Shown here: in pieces, positions 7,873-64,000 of the stretch | Layout: every line of letters begins with the position of its first letter | Numbering within the stretch: position 1 is the first letter of the stretch | NCBI GenBank assembly: GCA_050084515.1 | Contig: CM114271.1 | Location: 17,546,001-17,610,000 of the forward strand | DNA length: 64,000 bases | Direction of reading: 5' to 3' | Source: Blasia pusilla | Taxonomy: Eukaryota | The notes under the pieces: generated by a model | Seen by the model: the letters and a program-made list of their open reading frames with translations, nothing else | The model's database searches: none | Told to the model about the DNA's origin: nothing | Position numbers and translations under genes: made by a program

Positions 7873-11644
<3,772 letters not shown>

Positions 11645-33008: not shown

Positions 33009-36000
33009 AGAAGGGTTGTGAACTTGAAAACGTTGCTCAATATTGCACGTATTCCTAACTTTGAAGAGAATCACATTTGAATTCTTAGGTTGGGAGATCG
33101 TATTCATAGTATGATTGGCCGTTTTAGTGTTGGACTTATGAATGTTGTTTGTCCGACTTGCAATGCTCTACATGGGAAGTGTGAGAGAGTGAAGTATACT
33201 AGGTTTATAAGCTCGCCTTTTAGTATGTGTTGTGGGCATGGTAAGATTCAATTACCATATTTGACAACTTCACCTTTTATACTAGCAGAATTACTTTCTA
33301 GTATGAGTTCAAAAAGTCTTCATTTTGTGCCTAATGCACGTGCCTATAATAATGCTCTTCAATTGGTATCTACTAGGGCATATGTAACAGAGCAACGAGG
33401 CGATACAGGAAACTTCAGGATTCAAGGTGATGTATATCATTCTATTGGACCTCTTCATGCTGAAAGTGGTGCTCGTCCACAATTCGCGCAAATTTATATT
33501 CATGATGATGAGCATCAGATGGAACATAGAAGAAGGATTATGAGTGGAGATTATCGGGATCAATTGAGGCCAGAGATCTTAAGGGGATTACAAGATATAT
33601 TACATGCCCATAATCCATATGTGGCTTTATTTCGAAATGTGGCTATTGATCCATGTAATTCTGACTTTCATATTGTTCTTAAGGGTAGTAAGCGAGGTCC
33701 TGATGCAAAACGATACACCTTGCCTGTTGCTTCAGAGATTGCAGCTATCTTGCCTAGAGATGGGAGTGATCCAATAGAAGGACGTGATATTATTGTTCGC
33801 TTACATGGAGGAGGGATTCGTCGTCTGTCAGATTTGAATGAAGCATATATCCCATTGCACTTTGTTTTGCCTTTTGTTTATGGTGAAGCAGGTTGGCATC
33901 TTGGGATACCTTTGCAAGTGCAACATGATCATAGAGATGATCTGCCGTTAAGAGGGGATGCTATGATGGACGAAGATAGAGATGATATTGTACAAGGAGG
34001 AATTTAAGGTGAGGTTACCACTTATGAGGCGAGTTCAAAGACCATTACAACTTTACAATTTGCTTCATTCAGACTTCAAATGCGAGCTAACGCTATGGAT
34101 AATAATCGGTTGTTGAGGTTTGGTCGTCTTACTCAAGAATGTATGGTGGATATGTAGGCGACTATCAAAATGCAACGGCTAACTTGGATACGATTGCATC
34201 AAAAAGAGTTGAGAGCTGATTTATACCAAGGTGTCAGAGATGCCATGACTCGGTATGATGTGAATGGTCAAGGCATAGGGAGACGTATTATCATATCTTC
34301 GTCTTTCATAGGAGGACCCCGTCACATACATCAATTGTACCATGATGTTATGGCCATTGTGAGACATTTTGGGAAGCCTGACTACTTTTTGACTATGACT
34401 TGCAATCCTAAATGGCCAGAGATTACTGTTGCTCTGCTTCATGGGCAATCAACGTCTGATCATCCTGACCTGGATATACGTGTTTTCCAACAAAAGAAGA
34501 AGGATTTTTTGAGACTTATATTGGATAAGCATATTTTGGGTCGAGTGATAGGATGCATTCATATGGTCGAGTTCCAAAAGAGAGGGCTACCACATGTGCA
34601 TATCCTAATTATTCTTGCTTCTGAGGATAAGCCAAGGACAACCTCTGATTTTGACGATATTATATTTGCTGAGATTCCGAATCCCATGACTCATCCTAGG
34701 CTATATTCTATTGTAAGAAATTGTATGATTCATGGTCCGTGTGGAGTAGCACATCCAAATGCACCTTGCACGGATAAAACGACAAAAAAATGTTCCAAAG
34801 GATACCCAATGCCCTTTGCATAAATGACAATGGAGAATGAGGATGGATATCCTATTTATAAGAGGTAATTGATTGGTTTTGTTGTTTATTTCGTCATTTA
34901 ATGTTCTTCTATTAATGTGCTATCTATTTTCCCCAACTATTAACATACTTCTATATATGTTTATGCAGGCCTGATAATGACAGATTGATTAATAAGTCAA
35001 ATCATGACTTTGATAATCGTTGGGTGGTTCCATACAATCTAATGTTATGTACTTTATTTGATTGTCATATCAATATGGAGATAACAAATAGTATCTTTGC
35101 AATAAAGTACTTTTATAAGTATGTGTACAAAGGATCTGATGCCATATTATATACCTTGTCAAATACTACATCAAGAGAGGATACTATTGATGAGACATCA
35201 TTATATCTTGATGCAAAGTATTTCGATCCCTTCTATCTTTCAAGATCTCCCAATTTTTCCTATGATATTATGTGGGACTCTAACAATATTTATATTGTAT
35301 GGTATAAAGGTAGGTTTCTTCTTCAGAAGCATGTTGGCGAATCTTCAAGTTTAGTCTACATGCAGAGCAACCAAGTATTGTGAGATTGATTGTTCATCCT
35401 CCAGACAGTCAAACGGTATATTTTCATGGGCAAGATTCATTGGGTAATATTCTGGAGCGAAGTAAGGAAACCACTCTCACTCAATGGTTTGCAACAAATG
35501 TTTCTGATTCGACTACGCGACAATATCTTTATTTGGAGTTCCCTTCTCATTACTCTTGGAATAAGAAGCAATAGCATCTGCGTAAACGTGCACAAAAAGG
35601 ATGTGGACATCCTATTTGACGTCTGTATATGACAAATCCAAGTTAACTTTCTATTCTTTGTTAAGATACAATTATTAAGGAAAAATTTGAATTACTGTTA
35701 AAATCATATTCATGCTTCCTTCCTAATACTTTTTTTAGGCTAATCCTAGCTGAAGGGGAGCGTCATTGGTTACGATTACTTCTCCATCATGTGAGAGGAG
35801 CTCAATCATATCAAGATTTGAGAACCATCGATGGTATAGTTTATCCTACCTTCAAAGAGATTGCTATTCAGATGGGACTTTTGGAGGACGATAGAGAGAT
35901 CTTTTCTTGCTTTGAAGAGGCGGTTGTCATTTGTATTGGCTATTCATTACATCTACTCTTTGCCATCAGTCTTCTATATAATACACCTTCTCTTCCGGCT

Positions 36001-50426: not shown

Positions 50427-53203
50427 TGTCGTGCGCATAGACATCGCTACACAACATACATCACAGTCACCGAAAACACACACAAACACGCACGATCCCA
50501 TGCTAACTTATGGCATCCAAACAACGAGACAAGAAGTACCAAAATATCTCCAATAAAATAAGATGAAATCTCTCTCACAACACCATAACTCTCACATGTC
50601 TCTCTCAATGTCAAACCAAACCAAACTAAATGTCCTCTAATGAGAGGCTTGGGTTACACTCACAAGGCAAGGGACCATAGTTCTTCCCCCTCGTGCCAAG
50701 AGGTTCAACAAAGAGAGAATGAGCTCTCCCAAGCTCTCTCCCAAGCATGGTAACCTATGCTCCCAAGTCACCTCCTTGGCTCTTGACCTGATGTAGGAGG
50801 TCAAGGGTAACTTCCCAAAATAGAAAAGTGACCATATATTCAAAATAATACTTATCTAAAATAGTAAGTTTCTCAATATGGCTCCAAGTACCGTAAATGT
50901 TCGGAACATGACTCGACGCACAGTTACGCACATGGTCCTTCCAAACCATACCATCGCGTCCCTCCAATAAGAGAACACTTGATGGCAAAACCTCACGCAC
51001 TCTCAAGATGGTGCACCCTACAGTCACATCCAATGTCGTGGGTGCCGTATGCTACAAGTAGACATAGTATCCCTAATGAAACATGTGGATAGTAGGTCGA
51101 TAACCACCTCCCCAAATAGTCGCATACCTCAATGTATCCCAATGCTACGCAATCGTCAAGTTCTCAAATGCCATGGGCATCACTCTTCGAAATAAATCAG
51201 CCCTCTGAGAACATGCTCGCATCCATACATCAGGGTCATCAAGGTTCAACACCTCACCAACATCTAGACAAATGGTCGTAGGTAAATCTGGCTCTTGGCC
51301 TTACAAAAGCAAGTACGGTGAGAAAGACGCTAAGGATGCCTGCTAGCTGAATCTGTATCCCATCGCCAACCACGGCAATTGGAGGTCCCAATCTCCTAGG
51401 TGACCTCTCTGCAAGCCATAGTTGCGTAACCCTCTCTTCATTGTCTGCACAACTCGCTATGCTAGTCCATCCGACTTAGGATGATCTCGCGATAGTGCGG
51501 TGGTCAATCAGTGCCTAATCATACAAGGCCTGAAACTCCCCGCGGAACTCTGTACCCTGGTGTGTCAACACCTCAGCTATTGCTCTGTAAAGACTCAACA
51601 TCCGATGTAGGAAGGTATACGCTACTCCCTCACTCGCTTTGTCACGCAATGCAACCAACTCTATCCACTCGGAGAAGTGCTCAACCATCACCAACACATA
51701 ACGACTATGGTGCTCCGTCAGAGGTAAAGGTCATGCCAAATCCAAACTCCAGCTATAACCTAAATCCATGATCAGAAGTGGATGCAACTATGGAGTCAGA
51801 GCATTGAAGGATGTCCGGACTCGATCACGCACCATACATCTGGCAACAAACTGCTGAACGTTAGTCTGCATGCCTCGCCACCAATACTAAATCTAGAGCA
51901 AGATGTACGTCCGCTTAACTCCAAAATGACCCAACTCCTCATGGGCAGGACGTACCAAACGTACTCTCTGCAAAGGATGAGGCACTACACGCACTCTATC
52001 ATCTTCCCACACTCGCAACACATGTGTCCCCTCCCACGGGAATCGTCTAGCTTGCTGTAGGATCCGATCTCGCTCTCTAGCACTCACTGTGCTCGCGATG
52101 CTGGCAGTACGCATGTACTCCAAGACTATTCCATCGTCGTGAATATCTCGGCCACCTGTCGTCTCCTCACCGGCTTCTAGATCTAAGGACTCTCCATCAG
52201 ACCTTGCCATCAAAGTCTCAGTAATCTGGCTCTCTATAGCCAAGAAGCCCAAATAGTTGACGCGTGCCATCCTGGCATGAATTGCTAATCACTCTCTCCA
52301 TGCCATCGAGCTCCAATTGCATCTCGTTGACTCGGGCATGGATTATGGCTCAGACCATCTGCATCCTGGTTGAGCATCCCAGATCTATGTACCACCTGGA
52401 AGTCATACTCCTGCAACAAAAGAGCCGACCTCGCAAGCTTCCTTGTAAGCTTGTCGGACTCCATCAACCACTCAAGTGGTTGATGATCAGCAATGATGGT
52501 GAAGGGATTTCCAAATAGATAACATCAGAAATATGCGACAGCCCACACTACAGCCAAGCACTCACCCTCAAACGAGCTATACTTCGCCTCTACAACGTTG
52601 TTCGAGCGACTAGCGTAAGCCACCACAAACTATCTACCATCATTTTCATGCCGGGTGAGCACAACTCCAAGCCCCAACATGCTCCAATCGGTATGCAATT
52701 GGAAAGGACGCCCCCTGATCGGTCTCCTCAATATGGGCGCGGATGTCAATATGTCCTTGAGTAGGTGAAATGCTCTCTCCTCCTCATACCCCCAATACCA
52801 CTCCTGATCCATCTTGGTCAGCAAGGTTAGTGGTTTTGCAATCGAACTAAAACCCTTGACGTACCGTCGATAGAAATTCTCCAATCCCATGAATGCACAA
52901 ACTCGACTCACATCTATAGGGTGTGGAATGCGTGAAATAGCCTCCACCTTTGTCTACTATACACCAAGGCCCCTTGGGTACATAGTCGTAGAAGAACTTG
53001 CACTTGCCTAGGTGTAGCTCTAGCCCATGTACCTACAATCGTCAAAACACCTCCTCTAGATTACGCTCATGCTCCTCAACCGTGATGCTAAAGACTACAA
53101 TATCATCAATATTACACCTAGCAAAATCCAAACCTGCCAAGATCCAATCCATGATCCTTTGAAACTCAGCCGAGGTGTTCTTTAACCCGAATGGTAAGAA
53201 CCG
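50427..53203 (-). mobile_element. Older antisense copy of the same gypsy-like family, 3' part (RT C-terminus, RNase H, integrase, terminal A-B repeat)
   Basis: Minus-strand ORFs 52630-52947, 52285-52467, 51893-52270 and 51515-51697 closely match 60299-62650. Terminus TGTCGTGCGC at 50427 is the reverse complement of repeat B, followed by part of repeat A (to about 50887). The PHD region is deleted. Confidence 0.9.
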
Positions 53204-53720
53204 TGTCATGTGTTTTAGGATAGATCGGTGAGATCTAATAGAGCTAGAGCGCCTTTGTGAGTAGTGGAGGACACGCTCAGTAGGTCGCGGATGACCTGCT
53301 GAGGCCTCGGGAAACCTGAGAGAGCCGGTTTCCCCCTTGTTTCGGCTCATTTGGAGCCATATTGAAGAACTTACTATTTTAGGTAAGTACCATTTTGAGT
53401 ATATGATCAACTTTATATTTTTGGTAAGTGGCCCTTGACCTCCTACATCAGGTCAAGAGCCAAGGAGGTGACTTGGGAGAATAGGTTACCATGGAGAGAG
53501 CTTGGGAGAGGGGAGGGGTATATCTCAAGGAGAGAGAGCTTGAGAGCTCATTCTCTCTTTGTTGAAACTCTTGGCATGAGGCGGTGGAGCTATGGTACCT
53601 TGCCTTGTGAGTGTAACCCAAGCCTCTCATTAGGAGAGTGGGTTTGGTTTGACATGAGAGAGAGTGCACACCTTTGAGAGCTATGGTGTGAGATGGTGGA
53701 GAGAGAGATTGGATCCTACT
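53204..53720 (+). repeat. Terminal repeat A1
   Basis: Matches 62961-63471, with roughly 15-20 differences by eye. Confidence 0.92.
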
Positions 53721-54294
53721 TTACAAAGAGAGAATGAGAGAGTGAGAGAGCTTCATGGGGGAGCTCATTGGTCACTCGCTGTTTTTGCAGGTTGGGGACC
53801 GTGTTCCCCGTTCAGCGGCTCATGGGAGTGCTCACCGGAGCAAGGGCAGCTTTCATTATTATTTGCATTTGCTGATTTTTCGTGTGGAAGAGTGGCGCGC
53901 GGAAGCGCTACCCAATTGTTGATAGGGATTGAGTATGGGTGCGGGTTGCCCCATGCTGGTGCTCTTGGAAGCACCATGAAGCTTGCTGATTTGTATTTAT
54001 ACAAATGTTACATTTTCGTTGGGAGAAATCAGCGCGGGAGCGCTGCCGGATTTTGTGTAGGAGAAAGAGAAATTGGGCTTTACTACAGTCCCTGTTTGTT
54101 TTTACTGAAGTGTTCGATTCTAAATATTTTTTCATACTAGCGTAGATCGTGAAGCTGTGCACGCTGTGCAACAAACAATGCGCAATTTGGAGTTGCAAGC
54201 AAAAAGTTATGGTCAATCTTGTAAAGCTGCCATTGCTAGGCGATTTTTAGGGTTTAATTGTGCAAACCCTAAATCAGCCGCCACACCGACCGCG

Positions 54295-54460
54295 GCCGTC
54301 GCCATCATAGTCACCGTCACCGGTCACCGGTCAACCTTCACCTTCGAAGGTCAACCGTCACCGTCAAACATCAACGGTCAACGTCAACAGTCAACCGTCA
54401 CCGTCGACGGTCGCCCGTCACCATCAATGGTCAACCGTCACTATCAACGGTCCACCGTCC
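54295..54460 (+). repeat. Short-unit repeat array (ACCGTCA / GGTCAAC) in the element 5' leader
   Basis: Many reiterated CACCGTCA/CGGTCAAC units, partly self-complementary. Confidence 0.75.
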
Positions 54461-55498
54461 ATTGTCCACCCTTTGGGTGCCATTTCCGCCATTACGGAGT
54501 GGAGGGTCTTCCACGACGTTCGTTGATTCCTTGACTTGCGTCGCCACCACGTACTTTGTTTTGGCCGCCACCGTCATCGCAGTTTCTTCATCAACCAGTG
54601 ATGGGAGATGACCTTCGGTTATGGTGTTTGAGTTTTGATTTCATGTTGCTATGTTGTGATTGGTAGCCGCTGGACGACGATCGAGTATCGTGCCGTGATG
54701 CCCGTAGCCGCAACGCGCCGCCGATTGCCGCGCCGTGCCGCTCGTGGCCGCACCGCACCGTCTCGATCGTGGAGCCGCACCGTCATTGTGGAGCAGAGTG
54801 TGGGTTTATTGTTGATTGAGGAGGGTATGCCGCCGAGTGCCGCATCCCGCCATCGAGGGCCGTGCCGTTCGTAAAGCCGCCGTTCGTGCCGCCGCAACGC
54901 CGCACGTTTATTTGGGACCGCATTGTCTATCGAGGAGTTTTGAGCGTCGTGACGATGGGAGGAGAATGACTTGCTGATTGGAGGAGTTGTCTCCACGATC
55001 GAGTTGGGGTCGAGATTTGCGATTCTTTGAGAGCGACATTCACATGTGTTCGAGTTACCCATTTCGGTCCTTTACCCCTGCACGTGTGAGGGATTAGGAT
55101 TTGGGTAGTTTATTTGGGGATATTGGGTGTGTGGATGCTGAGAGCATCATTTATGTATATGGTTTAGGGGACATAGACCTGTGTGGGATGTCCGAAGTTG
55201 AGGATAGGTTGTCGATGAGATGATAGCCTGGTCGATTTGCCATGCCGCGTGTTGTTGCACGTTACACGTCTCGGGGAGAGAGAGTGTAGATCGAGTGCCG
55301 CATGTTTGGGATGAGTGATTGAGGGATTCCTCACGAGGTTCAGAGTGATCGGGTGAGAGGGGAACGAGGGTCATCACGGAGTCCGTTCGGGACTTTGAGA
55401 GGCGAGGTGGTGAACCCGAGAGTAGCTCGAGAGGTTTTACGCGGAGTGGCGCTAGGTTTCGAGGGTCTCCACGTGAGGGACTACCTCGACCTCCTTCT

Positions 55499-57960
55499 GT
55501 GTCATTGTTAGACGAGGGGGAGGGTATAGAGGAGTTTGTGAGCACTTCGCCACACATTGTGAGTGGTCCTACCAGTTGGGCGTACAAGATGGACGACCGG
55601 GGTAGAGGACCGCGTAGGTTTTCAGGTGCAGTAGGCACGATTGAGTTGCACAATTTTATAGTAGAGTTTAGGAGTTGGTGCGACTCCCGGGGCCAGAACT
55701 CTAGAGAGTTCAACCCGTTCTGACATGGAACGGTATGTTCCAGCATTTAGAGGGGGCGCCCATGGATGATTACCATGAGTTCTCTCAGAGATATGCATGT
55801 GAGATCGAGGCGTGGAGGCTCTACTATGACCCACATTATGTGTCATGGACGGAGCCGTTCCCAAATGAGGAGGATGAGTCAGGAGAGGCTACTGCCTCTT
55901 CCACTAGTGACGTTTTAGGAGGGGTCACTCGACGACGGGAGCGATTGCACCGTCTAGTCGGGTTCGCCCCGAGGTTCAACCCGTGGTTGAGTTCTTTCTT
56001 TGAGTTGAGGGCGAGCTACCAGGGGGTACGGACGGAGAAGTTGCGGAGCATCCACGAATTCCAAAGGCGCCCGGGTGAGAGTTTGCGTGAGGCTTACACT
56101 CGCTTGCACCGGTTGATCAACGTCACTCAGGGGGTGATAGAGGCTCAGGCTATCCAGTCATGGTACGCGATGCTGGACCGGACTCTGCGGACACGGGTGC
56201 GGGAGGGGGTGCTTCTTATGAACACCTCCCCTACGTTGAGAGATGTTTTTAGGACCGCCGAGAACATTGAGCGCAACATGGCGGAGAAGAGCGTAGCCAC
56301 CATGGGTTCTGGGCGAGAGCGATCCACGATTATCGCACCACTGCATAAACAACGTGGACCCCGAGATAGGTCGACTGTGGCACCACGAGCTCAGGGAGGA
56401 TACCGGGAGGCCGTGCCACAGAGACCTGCGCCTTCATATGCGGCTCAATAGCAACCGCCTACTATTACTTGTTGGTCATGTGGTGGAGCCCATCATCAGC
56501 GCGATTGCACTCGTCAGGGTCATGGACGTGTGCCTTAGCATGGAGGAGGAGATGGTGCTGCACCCGGAGGTTATCAGTGTGACTATTGTCAGAGGTATGG
56601 TCATACACGCGCCATGTGTTTCAGTTTACATCCTGAGTTACGTCCGGACCGAGGGCCAGAGAGGGCACCAGAGCGAGTAGCCCGTCCAGGTGGGCCTAGA
56701 GATCGTGCACCAGGTGGTTCCGTTGGGGGACGAGTAGCAGGAGTTGCCCGACAGGGTGGTGGAGCTGCTCGTGGAGGAGGTAGAGTACCACCACGTAGAT
56801 GCATCGAGGGAGACGTCGGATGTGAGGTTGGGATGGCTGCTCAGATACAACAGCTACAGGAGCAGATTGCCACTATGGCATTGAGGTTACCCGATGCCGG
56901 ATCCGTGGCATCGACATCATATGGAGCAGCCAGAGATCTGGAGGATCTTGGATGGATGTGCGGGGTTGCCTAGATGGAGGCCGCTACAATTGTGACGCGT
57001 GGAGCGGCCGCAGAGTTGGATCCACAGCGAGGGGAAGCCAGAAGGTAGACTAGGCTTCCTCAGTCTTTCACGTTGTCCGAAGCGATGAGGACCCCATCGA
57101 TGGGTCCTCATCAAAGTTCCTGGAGAGTTGGTGATGTTGTTGGTGTGCAGGCACAAAGGGCGATGGGAGAAGCGAGTGCGACGACTCCTATTGTTGATGC
57201 TGAGGAGAGGCATGTGTCGAGCACGTTGTTGGGGGCGGCCACCGTTGTGTACCGCACTCCTTTATTTTCTGCTTCCGATGTTATGACGTTGGGGGGTACG
57301 CCCGCCGAGGCTTATCGGCTGGCCGCTTCACTATGTGAGCGCGGAGTTGGAGTTCCTGCATCACGTTCAGAGGTGATTGCAGAGGAGGTGATGGACCTGC
57401 CCTTGGAGCGGATGCTTGGGCCGTCCACGTCAGATTCATGGCAAACTGCGGCTGCTAGGATGGCGGAGATGCCCGCTAGACCCACGATAGAGCGTGCCAT
57501 GGCTTCTCCTGGTGTTGTGTTGCTGGATAACCGAGGAGAGGTCTTCCAGTTGGTGAGTCCTGGAGGTAGAGCTTTTAGTCCGCAGCGCGTCTTGTTGGAT
57601 TAAGAAGCGCAACCCTTGATGTTGGGGAAAGCGTCATTCAGAGGATTGGGCTTGACGAGAGCCGATGTGGAGCGTTGTCCATTCCGGATCCAGACATCCT
57701 TGGGTGGAGCAAGTACCACACAGTATATCACCTGACAAGAGGTCGTGGTGAGGATTCGCCCGGGACATCCTGAGATGAGTCCGTGAAAGTGCGCCAAAGC
57801 GATAGTGGCCCGATCACGAGTCCTCGACGTCTTGGTTGGTGGAGCAGTGTTATACCCGATGGGGTTTTCCCTGGATTACTGGGAGGAGTCAGCGTCCTAT
57901 AGACCAGGATGGCAGTCAGATGATGGGCGCCTTAGCTCATTACCCGTTTGATTCACAAGT
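55499..57960 (+). pseudogene. Gag (capsid-like region plus two CCHC knuckles) and aspartic protease of the gypsy-like element
   Basis: RFSGAVGTIELHNFIVEF; FQRRPGESLREAYTRL; knuckles CWSCGGAHHQRDC (about 56469) and CDYCQRYGHTRAMC (about 56578); protease site RVLLD*EAQPL (stop at 57601 where D-S/T-G is expected). Confidence 0.8.
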
Positions 57961-58311
57961 GCAGTGATCGAGCAACGGCAAGGAGAGATGGCGACCTTAG
58001 CAACATTTAGTAGTGCCATCACTTGGCCTAGTGATTTGATTGAGGGACATGTCCATGCAGAGGATACTCCCGTTCCTGAAATTTCTATGGAGAGGAGTGT
58101 TATGGTAGCTGCATCATTCCATGGAGGAGAGGTGCCGTTGTGGGGCTCGATTGAGGAGCTTCAACGATTGGCAGATGAGCACGTGCAGACCGCGTGGAGC
58201 GAGGCGTTTGCACCAAAGCGTGATGAGTCTGAGGAACCCGAGGTAGCAGGGAGTGCTACGATGACACCCTTGGATACCACACCCATTGTGTGGTGTACCC
58301 CGGAGGAGGGT

Positions 58312-59260
58312 ATTCAAGTGTTAGATCTCTTTGGAGGGATTAGCACCGGGTTAGCTGTTGTTTTGCAGGCAGGAGTGCGAGTACAGCAGTACCTGTATGT
58401 GGAGAGTGATGATGTTGCGAGGCGCGTCTCATTACGACATGTGGCACAATTACGCCTACGTTTTCCCGACTTATTGTCTGCGTCCGCAGTACAGGGGTAC
58501 GGGAGTTCCCTACCGAGGGATATTTTGTTGTTGGGGGTGTAGGACTTAGAGCGGGTAGGGACCATTGATTTGGTCATTGCCGGTTGGCCATGTCAGGGCC
58601 AATCGAGTGTTGGACGAGGCAGCGGGTTGGCTGACACTCGATCCAGGTTGTTTTGGGAGATGTTGAGGGTCTTACGGCAATTGCAGGAGCACCAGTCTCG
58701 TTCTCCAGCCTACATTCTGGAGAATGTGCCGATCTTAGGAGACTCCAGGTCACGGGTGGTGACGAGTGCTCATCAGGTGCGTGCCTGGATTGGCCCAACA
58801 GTGTTCTTGGATGCGGCGAGTGTAGGTTCTAGAGCCCATCGCCCGCGTCTATGGTGGACCAACTTGGTGCCCCATGCGGTGTTATGGAGGGCGTATGCGA
58901 GAGTGGAGCGCCCCTCCCATTTGTTAGTGGATTCCATTGTGGATCAAGGTCGTTGATCACAGGCAGTGAGGCATGATGATCGACCACCGTTGACTGTGGT
59001 CAACAGGGTAGGCAGGCCGCGGGCAACCTTGCCCACGTTTGTGAGTTTTCCCGCTTCCTATGCATACAAGGAGGCCGGTTCTGGCTTGGTTTGGGATGAC
59101 CAGGTTCAGCGGTTGGTGGAGCCCAACGCCGACGAGAGAGAGCGAGCAATGGGATTTCCCACAGGAGTGACGGCAGTACCATCAGTGTCAGAGGCATCAC
59201 GACGCCATGTCTTGGGTCAAGCGATGGACCTGAAGTGCTTGACATGGATCCTCAGCTTGG
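58312..59260 (+). pseudogene. DNMT3-like C5 cytosine DNA methyltransferase domain within the retrotransposon polyprotein
   Basis: Motif I VLDLFGGISTG, II YLYVESD, IV IDLVIAGWPCQ (catalytic Pro-Cys at 58588-58593), VI YILENV, VIII RAHRPRLWWTN, IX/X ERERAMGFP...RRHVLGQAM. In frame with gag-protease; interrupted by TAG 58540 and TGA 58954. Confidence 0.9.
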
Positions 59261-59697
59261 GAGTGGCTGAGCAGCGTCGTATGAGATCGTGACAGATCAC
59301 ATCGGTTGCGTTGGTGAGCCCCATGCCTACCGAGACGGTGGAGTGGAAGCGGTGGGGCGAGACCCGAGGAGATCTACGATCGGGAGATCGGGAGAGACAC
59401 CCTTGGACTTCTTGGGATGTTTTGGTGCACGCAAGGAGATGATAGCCACAAAGATCGGCGTGGTTTCGGCACCGCACGTGGAGGAGATCGAGTTTGCAGT
59501 TGGTCGTAGGAGAGCGGCCGAGTGTTGTTGTTCGAGACGGGGTTGTACCATAGCAACCACCGATACCCGCGCCGGAGAGTCCTACCGTAGTCACGATGGA
59601 GACTTGGGAGCCAGATATGGGCCCTAAGTTGACAGGATGAGAGCGGCGCCGAATACATCAGTTCCTCAGGAGTTATAGGAGCTGCTTTGCATTTAGC

Positions 59698-62650
59698 ATG
59701 GAGGATTTGGGTACGCTGAAGGGACCGGGGATCCGCATTGAGTTGTCGATTGATAGATCTTCCGACGACCCTCAGTCTGATGATATGGAGAGGGCTCGAT
59801 TGAGTAGGAGCCAGGACTTGGTCGGGAGAGGACTAGTGGAGATGTCGCATGGGGAGTATGCATCCGCCCGCTTTATCACGCCCGCCAAGAAGGATGTGCA
59901 TGGCAACCGGACGGATAGGCGGATGTGTGGGGATTACCGACCTATCAATCGGCAGACGAAGTCCGATAGGTATGCCATGCCCACCCCTGAGGAGATCTTT
60001 GATGCGATTGGTCACGCAAAGGTCTTGATTCATTGATTTATGAGCCGGATACCATCACCGCCTATCAGATTGGAGGATAGGCGTAAGACGGCATTTTGGG
60101 GCATCAATCCTCACGGGAAGGATTGTTTGTACCGGTGGCGTTCTTACCATTTGGTAAAGAACGCGCGGCTGAGTTTCGAGGGTCATGGATAGGATCTTGG
60201 CTGGTCTGGATTTTGCTAGGTGTTATATTGATGACATCGTAGTCTTTAGCGCCACGGTTGAGGAGCATGAGCAACATCTAGAGGAGGTGTTTTGACGATT
60301 GCAATTACATGGGCTGAAGCTACATCCAGGCAAGTGCCAGTTCTTCTACGACCAGATTGAGTACTTGGGTCATACAATATATCCAGGAGGCCTTGGTGTT
60401 CAGCAGACGAAGGTAGAGGCTATCTCACGCATTCCACGCCCTACAGATGTGAGCTGTGTTTGCGCATTCATGGGATTGGCGAACTTCTATCGGCGATACG
60501 TCAAGGGATTGATTCGATTTGGCGTGACCTTGCTGACCAAGGTGGATCACGAGTGGCACTGGGGGGATGGGCAGGAGCGAGCATTTCAGTTGCTCAAGGA
60601 CAGGTTGACGTCCGCATCCATCTTGAGGAGACCGATCAGGGGCCATCCTTTCCAGTTGCACACAGATTGGAGCATGTTGGGGCTTGGAGCGGTGCTCACC
60701 CAACATGATGATGAGGGTAGAGAGTTTGTGGTGGCTTATGCTAGCCGCTCGAACAACGCTGCAGAGGCGAAGTACAACTCGTATGAGGGTGAGTGCTTGG
60801 CTGCGGTGTGGGCTATCGCGCATTTCAGGTGTTACTTATTCGGCAACCCCTTTACCGTCATCACTGATCATCAACCACTGAAGTGGTTGATGGAGTCCGA
60901 CAAGCTTACAGGGAAGCTTGCGAGATGGGCTCTGTTGTTGTAGGAGTATGATTTTCAGGTGGTACATAGACCTGGAACGCTCAACCAGGATGCAGATGGG
61001 TTGAGTCGTAACCCATGCCCGAGTCAGCGAGATGCGACTGGAGCTCGATGGCATGGAGAGAGTGATGACGAGTCGGTGCCAGGATGGCACGCGTCAGCCT
61101 ATTTAGGCATGTTGGCTATGGAGAGCCAGAGTGTGGAGACTTCGATGGCGAGGTCTAGTGGAGAGTCCTTGGATCCCGAGGCCAGTGAGGACACGGCAAG
61201 TGGCCGAGATATTCATGATGATGGAGTAGTCTTGGAGTACCTTCGTAGTGGCAGCGTTGCGAGCACCATGGATGCTAGAGAGCGGGATTGGATCCTACAG
61301 CGGGCCAGACGGTTCCGTTGGGAGGGGACACATGTTTTGAGGGTTTGGGAGGATGGCAAAGTACGCGTAGTTCCGCATCCTTCGCAGAGAGCACGACTAG
61401 TGCAGCATGCCCACGAAGAGTTGGGTCACTTTGGGGTGAAGCGGACGTACAACTTGCTCCAGATTCAGTATTGGTGGCGAGGCATGCAGACTGACGTTCA
61501 GCAGTTTGTTGCCAGGTGCATGGTGTGTGATCGGGTCCGAGCATCGTTCAATGCTCCGACTCCACAGTTGCATCCGTTACCGATCATGGGCTTAGGGTAT
61601 AGATGGAGTTTGGATTTTGCAGGACCTTTGCCCTTGACGGAGCGACACAGTCGTTATGTGTTGGTGATGGTCGAGCACTTCTCGAAGTGGATCGAGTTGG
61701 TTGCATTGCCTGACAAAGCGAGTGAGGGAGTAGCTTATGCCTTCCTTGATAGAGTGCTGAGTGATTATGGCACACCGGCTGAGGTGTTGACAGACCAGGG
61801 TACCGAGTTTCGCGGTGAGCTCCAGGCCTTGTGTGATCAGGCGCTGATCGACCACCGCACGACTTTGCGAGATCATCCCGAGGCGGATGGATTAGCGGAG
61901 AGAATTGTGCAGACAGAGAAGAGGGGTTTACGCAAGTATGGCTTGCAGAGAGGTCACCTAGGAGATTGGGACCCCAGTTGCCATGGTTGGCGACGGGATA
62001 CAGATTCAGCAGGCAGGCATCCTTAGCGTCTTTTTCACCGCACTTGCTACTTTATGGCCGAGAGCCAGATTTACCTGCGGCCATTCGTCGAGATGCTGGT
62101 GAGGTGCTGGACCTTGATGACCCCAGATGTATGGGTGCGAGCTTGTTCTCAGAGGGCTGAGTTATTTCAGAGAGTGATGCCCATGGCGTTTGAGAACTTG
62201 GCGATTGCACAGCATCGGGATACGTTGAGGTATGCGACTATTCGGGATGGTGGTTATCGACCAACTATCCGGAGGTTTGATCAAGGAGATTATGTCTACT
62301 TGCAACAGACGGCACCCACGATGTTGGATGTGACTGCAGGGCGCACTATCCTTAGAGTGCGTGATATTTTGCCATCAGGTGTTCTCTTGCTGGAGGGACG
62401 CGATAGTATGGTATGGAAGGACCATGTGCGTAATTGTGCGCCATGTCACCTTCCTAACATTGATGGTACAGTAGATCCGAGCTTAGAAATAGTTCCTGCA
62501 GGCTTGCATTGTATGTTGTGTGGTTCTGCCCGTGGTGCGGCCACAATGCTAGGCTGTGATGGGTGTTCAAGAGGATGGCATATGGCATGTTTGACGCCAC
62601 CTCTCACTAGGGTTCCTCAGGGACGATGGATGTGTCCCAGATGTACATAG
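59698..62650 (+). pseudogene. RT - RNase H - integrase (HHCC, DDE) - C-terminal PHD finger
   Basis: RMCGDYRPIN; YIDD at 60224-60235; LHTDWS...GAVL...VVAYASR...ECLAAVW...TDHQPL; HEELGH...CMVC; SLDFAG, TDQG, GLAER; terminal CMLC...CDGCSRGWHMAC...WMCPRC. Confidence 0.92.
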
Positions 62651-62831
62651 AGTAGGTCGTTCTACATTCCGACTTGTGTCTGTGACATGGATGACAAGAA
62701 GGCGACTAACGATGGGGCCACATGAGCACCCGACCTTCTTGCTCTTAGCGTCCGAGAGATGTATATCATGGTAGGTAGGGATAGATGGCTATCTGGAGTT
62801 AGAGGGACCTAACCACCAGCTAGGGGGGCGA

Positions 62832-63599
62832 TTGGAGATATTTTGGTACTTCTTGTCTCGTTGTTTGGATGCCATGAGTTAGCATGGGATCATGCGTGTT
62901 TGTGTGTGTGTTCGGTGACAACGATGTATGTTGTGTAGCGATGTGTATGCGCACGACAAGTGTCACGTCTTTTAGGATAGATCGGTGAGATCTAATAGAG
63001 CGCCTTCGTGAGTAGTGGAGGACACGCTCAGTAGGTCGCGGATGACCTGCTGAGGCCCCGGAAAACCTGAGAGAGCCGGTTTCCCCCTTGTTTCGGCTCA
63101 TTTGGAGCCATATTGAGGAACTTACTATTTTAGGTAAGTACCATTTTGAGTATATGATCGACTTTATATTTTTGGTAAGTGGCCCTTGACCTCCTACATC
63201 AGGTCAAGAGCCAAGGAGGTGACTTGGGAGAATAGGTTACCATGGAGAGAGCTTGGGAGAGGGGAGGGGTATACCTCAAGAAGAGAGAGCTTGAGAGCTC
63301 ATTCTCTCTTTGTTGAACCTCTTGGCATGAGGCGGCGGAGCTATGGTACCTTGCCTTGTGAGTGATACCCAAGCCTCTAATTAGGAGAGTGGTTTTGGTT
63401 TGACATGAGAGAGAGTGCACACCTTTGAGAGCTATGGTGTGAGATGGTGGAGAGAGAGATTGGATCCTACTATTGGAGATATTTTAGTACTTCTTGTCTC
63501 GTTGTTTGGATGCCATGAGTTAGCATGGGATCATGCGTGTTTGTGTGTGTGTTCGATGACAGCGATGTATGTTGTGTAGCGATGTGTATGCGCACGACA
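62832..63599 (+). repeat. 3' terminal repeats B1 (62832-62958), A2 (62961-63471), B2 (63472-63599)
   Basis: B1 and B2 both read ATTGGAGATATTTT...GCGCACGACA; A2 matches A1. A purine run AGGGGGG (62822-62828) precedes B1. Confidence 0.9.
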
Positions 63600-64000
63600 G
63601 CCGCCACTAGTACAAACAATGAACATTTTGGTTCGTGAGGATCGATGCCCCAAAATGCCATCTTCTGCTTGTCCTCCAATCTGATAGGTAGGTGATGGTA
63701 TCCGGCTCGTAAATCTAATGAACTGAAGACCTATGCATACCCAATCATATTTAAGATCTCCAGAGGGGTGGGCATGGCATACCTATCGAACTTTATTTGC
63801 TGATTGATAGGTCGGTAATCTCCACACATCTGCCTATCCGTCCTGTTGCCATGCACATCCTTCTTGGCGGGCATGATAGTGGCAGATGCATACTCTCCAT
63901 ACAATATCTCCACTAGTCGTGCTCCAACCAAGTCCTGCCTCCTACTCTGAATCAGAGCCCTCTCCATATCACTGTACCTGTAGGGATTTCGAAAGATTGG
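63600..64000 (-). mobile_element. Upstream continuation (RT N-terminal part) of the antisense gypsy-like copy
   Basis: ORF 63731-63967 (GEYASATIMPAKKDVHGNRTDRQMCGDYRPIN...YAMPTP) matches 59698-60036 and joins the RT sequence left of 53203. Confidence 0.9.

Follow-up and report, generated by a model that had tools for sequence, protein, structure and literature searches.

The stretch of DNA analysed here, called the window below, comprises 64,000 nucleotides (nt) of Blasia pusilla (assembly GCA_050084515.1, contig CM114271.1, positions 17,546,001 to 17,610,000 of the forward strand). It contains a retroelement at 53204-63599 in which a gypsy-type Pol with a DDE integrase is combined with split direct repeats, here named A and B. 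Coordinates are those of the window, and features are on the plus strand unless stated otherwise. Repeat comparison and reading of the sequence define the element as a single complete insertion unit of the form A1-internal-B1-AG-A2-B2. The order of its parts is A1, leader, gag-like region with a zinc knuckle, Dnmt3-type methyltransferase, reverse transcriptase (RT), RNase H, DDE integrase, PHD finger, G-rich tract, B1, AG, A2, B2. The element belongs to a kind that has already been published, and the landmarks of its proposed mechanism described below are new.

The A1 repeat (53204-53720, 517 nt) starts with TGTCATG, the left integrase end, immediately after the flank ...AACCG. In a Blast comparison of the element with the window it is 95.9% identical over 518 columns to A2 (62961-63471), and B1 (62831-62958, 128 nt) is 97.7% identical over 128 columns to B2 (63472-63599). 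At its 3' end A1 reads ...CCTACT|TTACAAAGAG, with neither B nor TGG at this place; the sequence directly 3' of A1 begins TTACAAAGAGAG. B1 is entered at ...CTAGGGGGGCG|ATTGGAGAT and ends in ...GCGCACGACA, which is connected by the AG spacer (62959-62960) to TGTCACG of A2. A2 passes into B2 with no spacer (...CCTACT|ATTGGAGAT), and B2 ends in ...CGACA, the right integrase end, followed by GCCGCC. The termini of the element are TGTCA, the start of A, and CGACA, the end of B. The target duplication is ACCG (53200-53203) on the left and GCCG (63600-63603) on the right, with one mismatch; its length of 4 bp was set by comparison with relatives. The G+C content is 51-56% in the element region (52000-64000) and 34-46% in the window background (1-48000). 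A sequence-only reading of this DNA had reported the split repeats, a 5' end with neither B nor an obvious transfer RNA (tRNA) primer site, and a B1/A2 joint that reproduces an end-to-start junction. All three claims are borne out by the junctions: at the B1/A2 joint the two integrated ends of the element stand back to back.

The insertion interrupts an older, antisense copy of the same family. This is the only other copy of the family matched in the window, and its parts lie on both sides of the element. The 3' part of this copy, the insertion target, occupies 50427-53203 of the minus strand, and its continuation towards the window end occupies 63600-63971 (repeat comparison and Blast). The matched segments are 50427-53201, equivalent to plus-strand coordinates 60140-63599, and 63602-63971, equivalent to 59781-60140. 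Left and right flanks join up on the element's own sequence and are the two halves of one antisense copy, so that 53204-63599 is one complete insertion unit. The antisense copy terminates in A-B at 50427, as the sequence-only reading had noted. However, the equivalent of 62470-63101 is deleted from it, and it is thus uninformative about B1. Its A is only about 80% identical overall, yet the 16-mer of the self-primer segment described below is unchanged.

The 5' part of the element downstream of A1 is a non-coding leader (53739-55704), whose open reading frames (ORFs) contain no Pfam domains. It includes a tandem array with a 20-bp period (54309-54460), and related loci also have arrays in their leaders. 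The gag-like region (55705-56973) has no Pfam gag match; its translation contains a CX2CX4HX4C zinc knuckle, CDYCQRYGHTRAMC. Apart from this zinc knuckle, a Pfam scan detected PF00145, the end of the RT with RNase H, the H2C2 and rve domains of an integrase, and a C-terminal PHD finger. The PF00145 domain, a C5 cytosine DNA methyltransferase (57952-59292, E = 1.3e-11, with motifs recognizable in the translation), lies in the same frame as the RT start. The methyltransferase profile made from the window and its relatives best matches DNMT3A, DNMT3B and DNMT3C in PDB, with E values of about 1e-23 to 1e-21 for most entries. The RT and RNase H occupy 59641-60943, where PF17917 (E = 3.8e-35), PF17919 and the tail of PF00078 were found at 60296-60943. 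The integrase (60944-62026) consists of a zinc-binding H2C2 domain (PF17921, E = 2.6e-18) and a catalytic core (rve, PF00665, E = 3.3e-13) and is thus of the DDE type. Its C-terminal region (62027-62650) ends in the PHD finger (PF00628, E = 1.5e-11); no chromodomain was found by Pfam. Neither the methyltransferase domain nor the PHD finger had been noticed in the sequence-only reading. Its assignment of the integrase to the DDE type holds, and no tyrosine recombinase (PF00589 or other) was found in the 19 ORFs of at least 80 amino acids on both strands; the remaining ORFs yielded no further domain of any kind. The Pol order RT, RNase H, DDE integrase is that of gypsy elements. The coding region is defunct: two in-frame stops interrupt the methyltransferase domain, others lie in the interval between it and the RT and at the borders of RNase H with integrase and of integrase with PHD, and the frame changes within the RT between 60036 and 60296.

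For the analysis of relatives, the window methyltransferase was read through, with X at the stops, and searched for longer proteins. The nearest named relatives among the 42 matches are proteins of Marchantia polymorpha (about 60% identity), followed by Sphagnum fallax (45%), Chromochloris zofingiensis (36%) and many metagenome proteins; no Klebsormidium protein is among the 42. Several of the matches unite PF00145, RT, RNase H, integrase and PHD. The methyltransferase precedes the RT, as in the window, or is placed after RNase H and before the integrase. With 11 aligned methyltransferase segments, 80 metagenome loci were retrieved, and the 48 loci of at least 9 kb were compared with themselves. 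Five full elements (L027, L028, L043, L047, L066) show the arrangement A...B-A-B; they have the domain order of the window, and their integrase is 44% identical to that of the window element. The gypsy-like Pol order is the same in loci of this family, referred to as the L027 family.

Pieces of L047 (A, B, leader and the region before B) were then mapped on all 80 loci. Ends of the form tract-B-NN-A-B, where NN denotes a two-nucleotide spacer, occur with seven distinct 3' flanks and in one antisense copy whose flank was not read. None of the 18 listed 5' ends of this family has B after A; these include the same loci in different assemblies and represent at most about 16 distinct loci. The two A+B long terminal repeats (LTRs) that the sequence-only reading had suggested looking for in other full copies are thus not what the relatives contain. 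Among eight distinct loci with both flanks, six have perfect 4-bp duplications (L027, GGTC; L047, CCAA; L066, AACC; L067, TTGA; L074, TGTT; L076, AATT), one has a duplication with one mismatch (L043, ATTA/ACTA), and one has none (L028). A closer relative, L007, has an integrase 65-71% identical to that of the window. Its 5' A has no B upstream, and its 3' part reads tract-B-GC-A up to the contig edge. These data support the view that A...B-A-B characterizes the lineage and is not the mark of a damaged copy. Taken together, the identity of the element and its lineage-typical layout are, in our judgement, highly probable.

Seven other loci have tract-B followed directly by the flank, that is, the form A-internal-B. 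One of them, L061, has the same two flanks and the same CCAA duplication as the full copy L047 (A-internal-B-A-B), the two forms coming from two assemblies. As L061 and L047 occupy the same site, the short form there is the result of a deletion between B1 and B2. The possibility that A-internal-B copies are products of one-LTR circles was considered and rejected, L061 being a deletion derivative of L047.

The second architecture (RT, RNase H, methyltransferase, integrase, PHD) was observed in P0029, P0031, P0036, P0037, P0039 and L078; the domain has either moved or been acquired twice. L078 is a GC-rich sequence of 13469 bases with 122-nt ends that are 99% identical and an extra ORF after Pol; its assembly is circular or collapsed. 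It contains tract-B-GC-A, a TATA box and an 11-nt complementarity, and its assembly fits ordinary B-NN-A LTRs and the permuted form alike. A scan of viral contigs with the integrase yielded no relative.

The borders of the repeats coincide with candidate landmarks of reverse transcription. A1 contains a TATA-like box, TATATC (53519-53524), which may act as a promoter element. The segment CTCATTCTCTCTTTGT (53547-53562), 28 nt downstream of the box, is the predicted RNA 5' end (start of R) and candidate self-primer. It forms an inverted repeat with ACAAAGAGAGAATGAG (53723-53738), a candidate primer-binding site that begins 2 nt past the A1 end. The 16-nt pairing is perfect and is the longest inverted repeat of the region, and none of 2000 shuffles of A reached 16 nt; the 206-nt fold has a moderate z-score of -3.0. 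At the other end of the internal part, the polypurine-like tract AGGGGGGCG (62822-62830) lies directly before B1. In the window, the L027 family, L002, L007 and L078, B starts directly after such a run of six to nine G residues (G6-G9).

Similar complementarities are present in the relatives. In the L027 family, a site formed by the last 3 nt of A and the initial 12 nt of the leader is complementary to a segment around position 165 of A, over up to 15 nt; the pairing reaches at least 10 nt in 11 of the 18 5' ends, and for L027 itself none of 2000 shuffles reached 12 nt. L007 has a complementarity of 10 nt, the sole pair of that size in 1.2 kb. A TATA box is situated 27-34 nt upstream of the A segment in the window, in the L027 family (TATAAA) and in L078; L007 has only a weak TATA-like motif, TAAA, about 30 nt upstream. 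The two arms change together: in L076, a G>A change in the site is matched by a C>T change in the segment and the pairing is still 15/15, and L007 differs from the window by complementary 2-nt changes in both arms. TGG does not follow A in any of the four lineages, and no tRNA genes were found in the window. The complementarity within A, together with the TATA geometry and the compensatory changes in four lineages, suggests a self-priming signature of the Tf1 type. The tRNA-independent priming proposed in the sequence-only reading gains support from this signature, and self-priming of the element is, in our view, probable.

Three further observations concern the copying of the repeats. Firstly, in four of five elements the nearest neighbour of A1 is the A2 of that element and vice versa; such clustering by element is expected if each cycle copies both repeats from a single template. 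Secondly, the sequence CACGA(C/T)A-NN-TGTCA is conserved at the B|A junction: the spacer is constantly 2 nt long and varies in sequence (AG in the window, AC, GC or GT elsewhere). Finally, the A2|B2 joint brings together the last base before the primer site and the first base after the tract. Both the antisense copy and the majority consensus from host reads retain at this joint the TT that lies between A1 and the primer site.

A replication scheme that would produce this arrangement is as follows. Transcription would start about 30 nt downstream of the TATA box in A1, and the RNA would end inside A2. Its 5' end would fold onto the complementary site directly after A1 and prime the minus strand as in Tf1, and the plus strand would start at the G-rich tract directly before B1. 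Since B is bounded by the tract and A by the primer site, B-NN-A is the unit that the reverse transcriptase should duplicate, giving [B-NN-A]-internal-[B-NN-A]. The integrase ends would then meet within this unit, at the B|A junction (CA-NN-TG). The termini of the reverse transcript may be joined, A end to B start, via a circle or an equivalent template switch, which would create the A2|B2 joint. The DDE integrase would open one B|A junction, and the resulting linear A-internal-B-NN-A-B would be inserted with a 4-bp duplication. The anatomy of the junctions is such that the genomic form is the one expected from an end-joined [B-NN-A]-internal-[B-NN-A] opened at one B|A junction. Transcript start, priming, joined intermediate and cut are all deduced from sequence features.

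The sequence-only reading had likewise proposed a circular intermediate opened by the integrase. The junctions fit this proposal, the other permutation expected from it was not found at the 18 5' ends, and it retains the status of a conjecture. A joined intermediate opened by the integrase is a possibility that we put a little below even. The complete statement, namely that the element is a complete, coding-dead insertion from a green-plant and algal Ty3/gypsy-type lineage of the KnitGypsy-Dnmt3 kind with self-primed copying of B-NN-A and a joined intermediate opened by the integrase, is in our estimate slightly more probable than its negation. More generally, and tentatively, a bryophyte and green-alga lineage of DDE-integrase elements may have had its integrase ends moved inside the reverse-transcribed LTR, so that a self-primed two-LTR complementary DNA (cDNA) would be obligatorily end-joined and reopened at CA-NN-TG; we consider this somewhat less probable than the contrary.

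A number of observations weigh against this scheme. The alternative permutation A-B-A-internal-B is absent from all 18 5' ends. A circle with two identical B|A junctions should yield it about equally often, and its absence points to a directed choice of the junction or to a joint that is one-sided or otherwise not symmetric. The RNA reads resolve no start site, and no poly(A) site, cDNA form or circle was seen. In the L027 family the pairing is 8 nt or less at seven of the 18 5' ends, which we ascribe, by assumption, to decay. The A2|B2 joint of the plus-strand copy is devoid of the TT expected from a blunt join, which a 2-bp deletion would explain equally well. L053 has tract-B-A with no B2; in L028 the duplication is missing, and A1 and A2 do not group as nearest neighbours. 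The A-internal-B copies alone give no support for circles, at least L061 being a deletion derivative. Finally, the window's own family is represented by one full copy only, and the lineage counts are those of metagenome relatives.

Opening of joined ends by a DDE integrase has parallels. In retroviruses the junction in question lies at the LTR ends, the route is optional or disputed, and 4 bases separate CA from TG. In the window element, the reverse-transcribed repeat would itself contain the junction, integration would have to take this route, and 2 bases separate CA from TG. Integrase cleavage of two-LTR circle junctions in foamy virus and HIV-1 is reportedly the topic of Delelis 2007 and Thierry 2015. 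For foamy virus, the integrase is described as cleaving the LTR-LTR junction of two-LTR circles (Delelis 2005). The likeness is that, by this description, a DDE integrase cuts the back-to-back CA...TG ends of a joined molecule and produces integration-competent ends. If the proposed scheme is true, the two-LTR circle, a dead-end by-product in retroviruses, would become an obligatory intermediate.

One alternative retains self-primed copying of B-NN-A and dispenses with the free circle: the A|B joint would arise by a template switch of the reverse transcriptase between the two ends of one molecule, or by end-joining in the host once the integrase has inserted the two internal ends. All landmark evidence listed above fits this variant equally, and the occurrence of a single permutation (the other, 0 of 18) might in principle result from a one-sided template switch. 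However, unless one strand or one repeat length has an advantage, these routes are in theory symmetric as well, and they too are conjectural. We consider this variant unlikely.

Another alternative is replication as in DIRS, PAT or Ngaro elements with a DDE integrase substituted. A nearly full-length RNA from A1 to B2 would be copied, its terminal bases would be restored from the B1-NN-A2 template, and linear or circular DNA would then be integrated. The sequence-only reading had stated that A...BAB repeats are typical of PAT- and Ngaro-type tyrosine-recombinase elements, which is correct by the description in PMC4157794. PAT/Pat1, Toc, Kangaroo and Ngaro have A1...B1-A2-B2, in which the internal pair follows the coding region, as in the window (PMC4157794). 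These elements are described as having a tyrosine recombinase and no DDE integrase, whereas the window element encodes the H2C2 and rve domains of an integrase and is delimited by TG...CA and a 4-bp duplication. The same layout is reported for SymbioDIRS-Dnmt3, and the repeats of the Klebsormidium element are called DIRS-like by its authors (both de Mendoza 2018, as far as the accessible text goes). The missing permutation is equally unexplained in the DIRS, PAT and Ngaro elements. However, DIRS-like replication does not explain why B starts exactly after a G-rich tract, or why the end of A coincides exactly with a site that is complementary to the TATA-proximal segment of A. Grouping of A1 and A2 by element and not by position in four of five cases points to copying of both from one template per cycle, and the 19 scanned ORFs encode no tyrosine recombinase. 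Thus a DIRS-like scheme shares the problem of asymmetry and accounts less well for the landmarks than self-primed copying of B-NN-A with an intermediate opened by the integrase. We regard it as improbable.

The same mixture is seen when the element is set against the definitions of the two orders. As in Ty3/gypsy elements, the Pol order is RT, RNase H, integrase, and TG...CA ends are combined with a duplication within the range of 4-6 bp; there are no two identical flanking LTRs, and a self-complementary site takes the place of a tRNA primer-binding site. As in the DIRS order, the direct repeats are split; the tyrosine recombinase of that order is absent.

Self-priming itself has a competitor, namely priming by an unrecognized host tRNA or tRNA fragment, in which case the complementarity within A would be a regulatory stem. 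The tRNA comparison covered the window, with its zero tRNA genes; about 2% of plant LTR elements are reported to use half-tRNA primers (Neumann et al. 2019, accessible text); and the z-score of the 206-nt fold is only moderate. On the other hand, TGG never follows A in the four lineages. One arm of the complementarity is always adjacent to the A end, the other is situated 27-34 nt past the TATA box (the weak motif in the case of L007), and both arms change together. Self-priming has also been predicted for Tcn1 elements of mosses and club mosses, according to the same source (Neumann et al. 2019). Tf1/sushi elements and the plant Tcn1 chromoviruses resemble the window element in having, by that description, no tRNA-type site and a site by the 5' repeat that is complementary to the predicted RNA 5' end. 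They differ in having ordinary LTRs and a chromodomain, where the window element has permuted repeats, a PHD finger and a methyltransferase. Priming by a tRNA is, we think, quite improbable.

Least probable by far is a rearranged or mis-assembled standard element with A+B as LTR, whose 5' LTR lost B and whose 3' LTR was partially duplicated: A+B does resemble a normal LTR (TG...CA) and a single full copy of the window's own family is visible, but the same layout occurs in five full related loci, in further 3' ends from different assemblies, in L007 and in the published Klebsormidium element, the divergences of A1/A2 and B1/B2 are similar (95.9% and 97.7% identity) within a unit with matching flanks, and two precise events would be needed, exactly at the tract and at the primer site.

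The published element is KnitGypsy-Dnmt3 of Klebsormidium nitens, described as a gypsy Pol with Dnmt3 and a repeat structure the same as in DIRS (de Mendoza et al. 2018, Nat Commun 9:1341, Fig. 4c legend). Compared by description, both elements have a gypsy-type Pol, a Dnmt3-type methyltransferase and the order A-coding-B-A-B. They differ in the host, and the nearest named relatives of the window element are from Marchantia (about 60%). The novelty implied in the sequence-only reading is therefore lost, as gypsy, DIRS-type repeats and Dnmt3 had already been described together. The accessible text on KnitGypsy-Dnmt3 gives no account of priming, termini or mechanism; for the window element, the termini are described here and a priming and mechanism are proposed. 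A literature search, with subscription journals and Repbase Reports outside its coverage, identified de Mendoza 2018 as the sole description of split repeats in elements with a DDE integrase.

A likeness to Troyka elements, suggested in the sequence-only reading, does not stand. According to its description, Troyka is a gypsy-related lineage of animals with 3-bp duplications and CG...CG termini, and split repeats are not mentioned in the accessible part of it (Kojima 2025, J Gen Virol). What the two have in common is an unusual gypsy-related lineage with non-standard termini. The window element is from the plant lineage and has TG...CA and a 4-bp duplication. The termini and the duplication length, with Troyka taken from its description, rule out identity.

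In the textbook classification, as far as the source consulted describes it, direct LTRs go with DDE integrases, and split or inverted repeats go with tyrosine recombinases. The lineage described here breaks this link, which so far had been noted in one figure legend. If the proposed scheme is true, split direct repeats would stem from the position of the cut site and not from the kind of enzyme, be it a tyrosine recombinase or a DDE integrase. The landmarks (tract|B, A|self-primer site, the CA-NN-TG junction and 4-bp duplications) provide a concrete, testable replication scheme and rules for annotation. LTR finders will mis-annotate such elements, either taking A+B for a solo LTR or missing the 5' boundary. 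The methyltransferase and PHD finger carried by the element raise the question of interplay with host methylation.

In DNA sequencing runs of the host species the family reaches very high depth. Coverage of A exceeds that of the interior about ten-fold, suggesting the presence of many solo A-B units. Joints of an A end to a B start in reads are indistinguishable from the A2|B2 joint, and the reading of such joints covers 15 of 341. RNA reads of the host species cover the family; their first mates are mostly of the minus strand, and this bias reverses over the flanking antisense copy. Such a bias is what the usual stranded libraries give for sense transcripts of the family. As 16 of 8112 RNA reads are at least 99% alike to the window copy, expression is shown for the family and not for this copy. 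With an abundant, transcribed family and relatives in Marchantia, experiments in a tractable plant are conceivable.

Differences between copies over 52900-63900 (runs X1, X2 and X7) are mostly C>T and G>A, with 551 and 601, respectively, of about 2040 changed places in X1; such an excess is as expected from deamination of methylated cytosines. Air-metagenome runs X6, X10, X12 and X13 contain 15-31% of the element's sampled words, which is no evidence of habitat.

Two other mobile elements were observed elsewhere in the window. A LINE-type element at 8451-11644 of the minus strand has an RT (PF00078, E = 7.8e-20) and an AP-type endonuclease (PF03372). A Helitron remnant at 33081-34823 of the plus strand contains a helicase-like N-terminal domain (PF14214, E = 2.4e-47).

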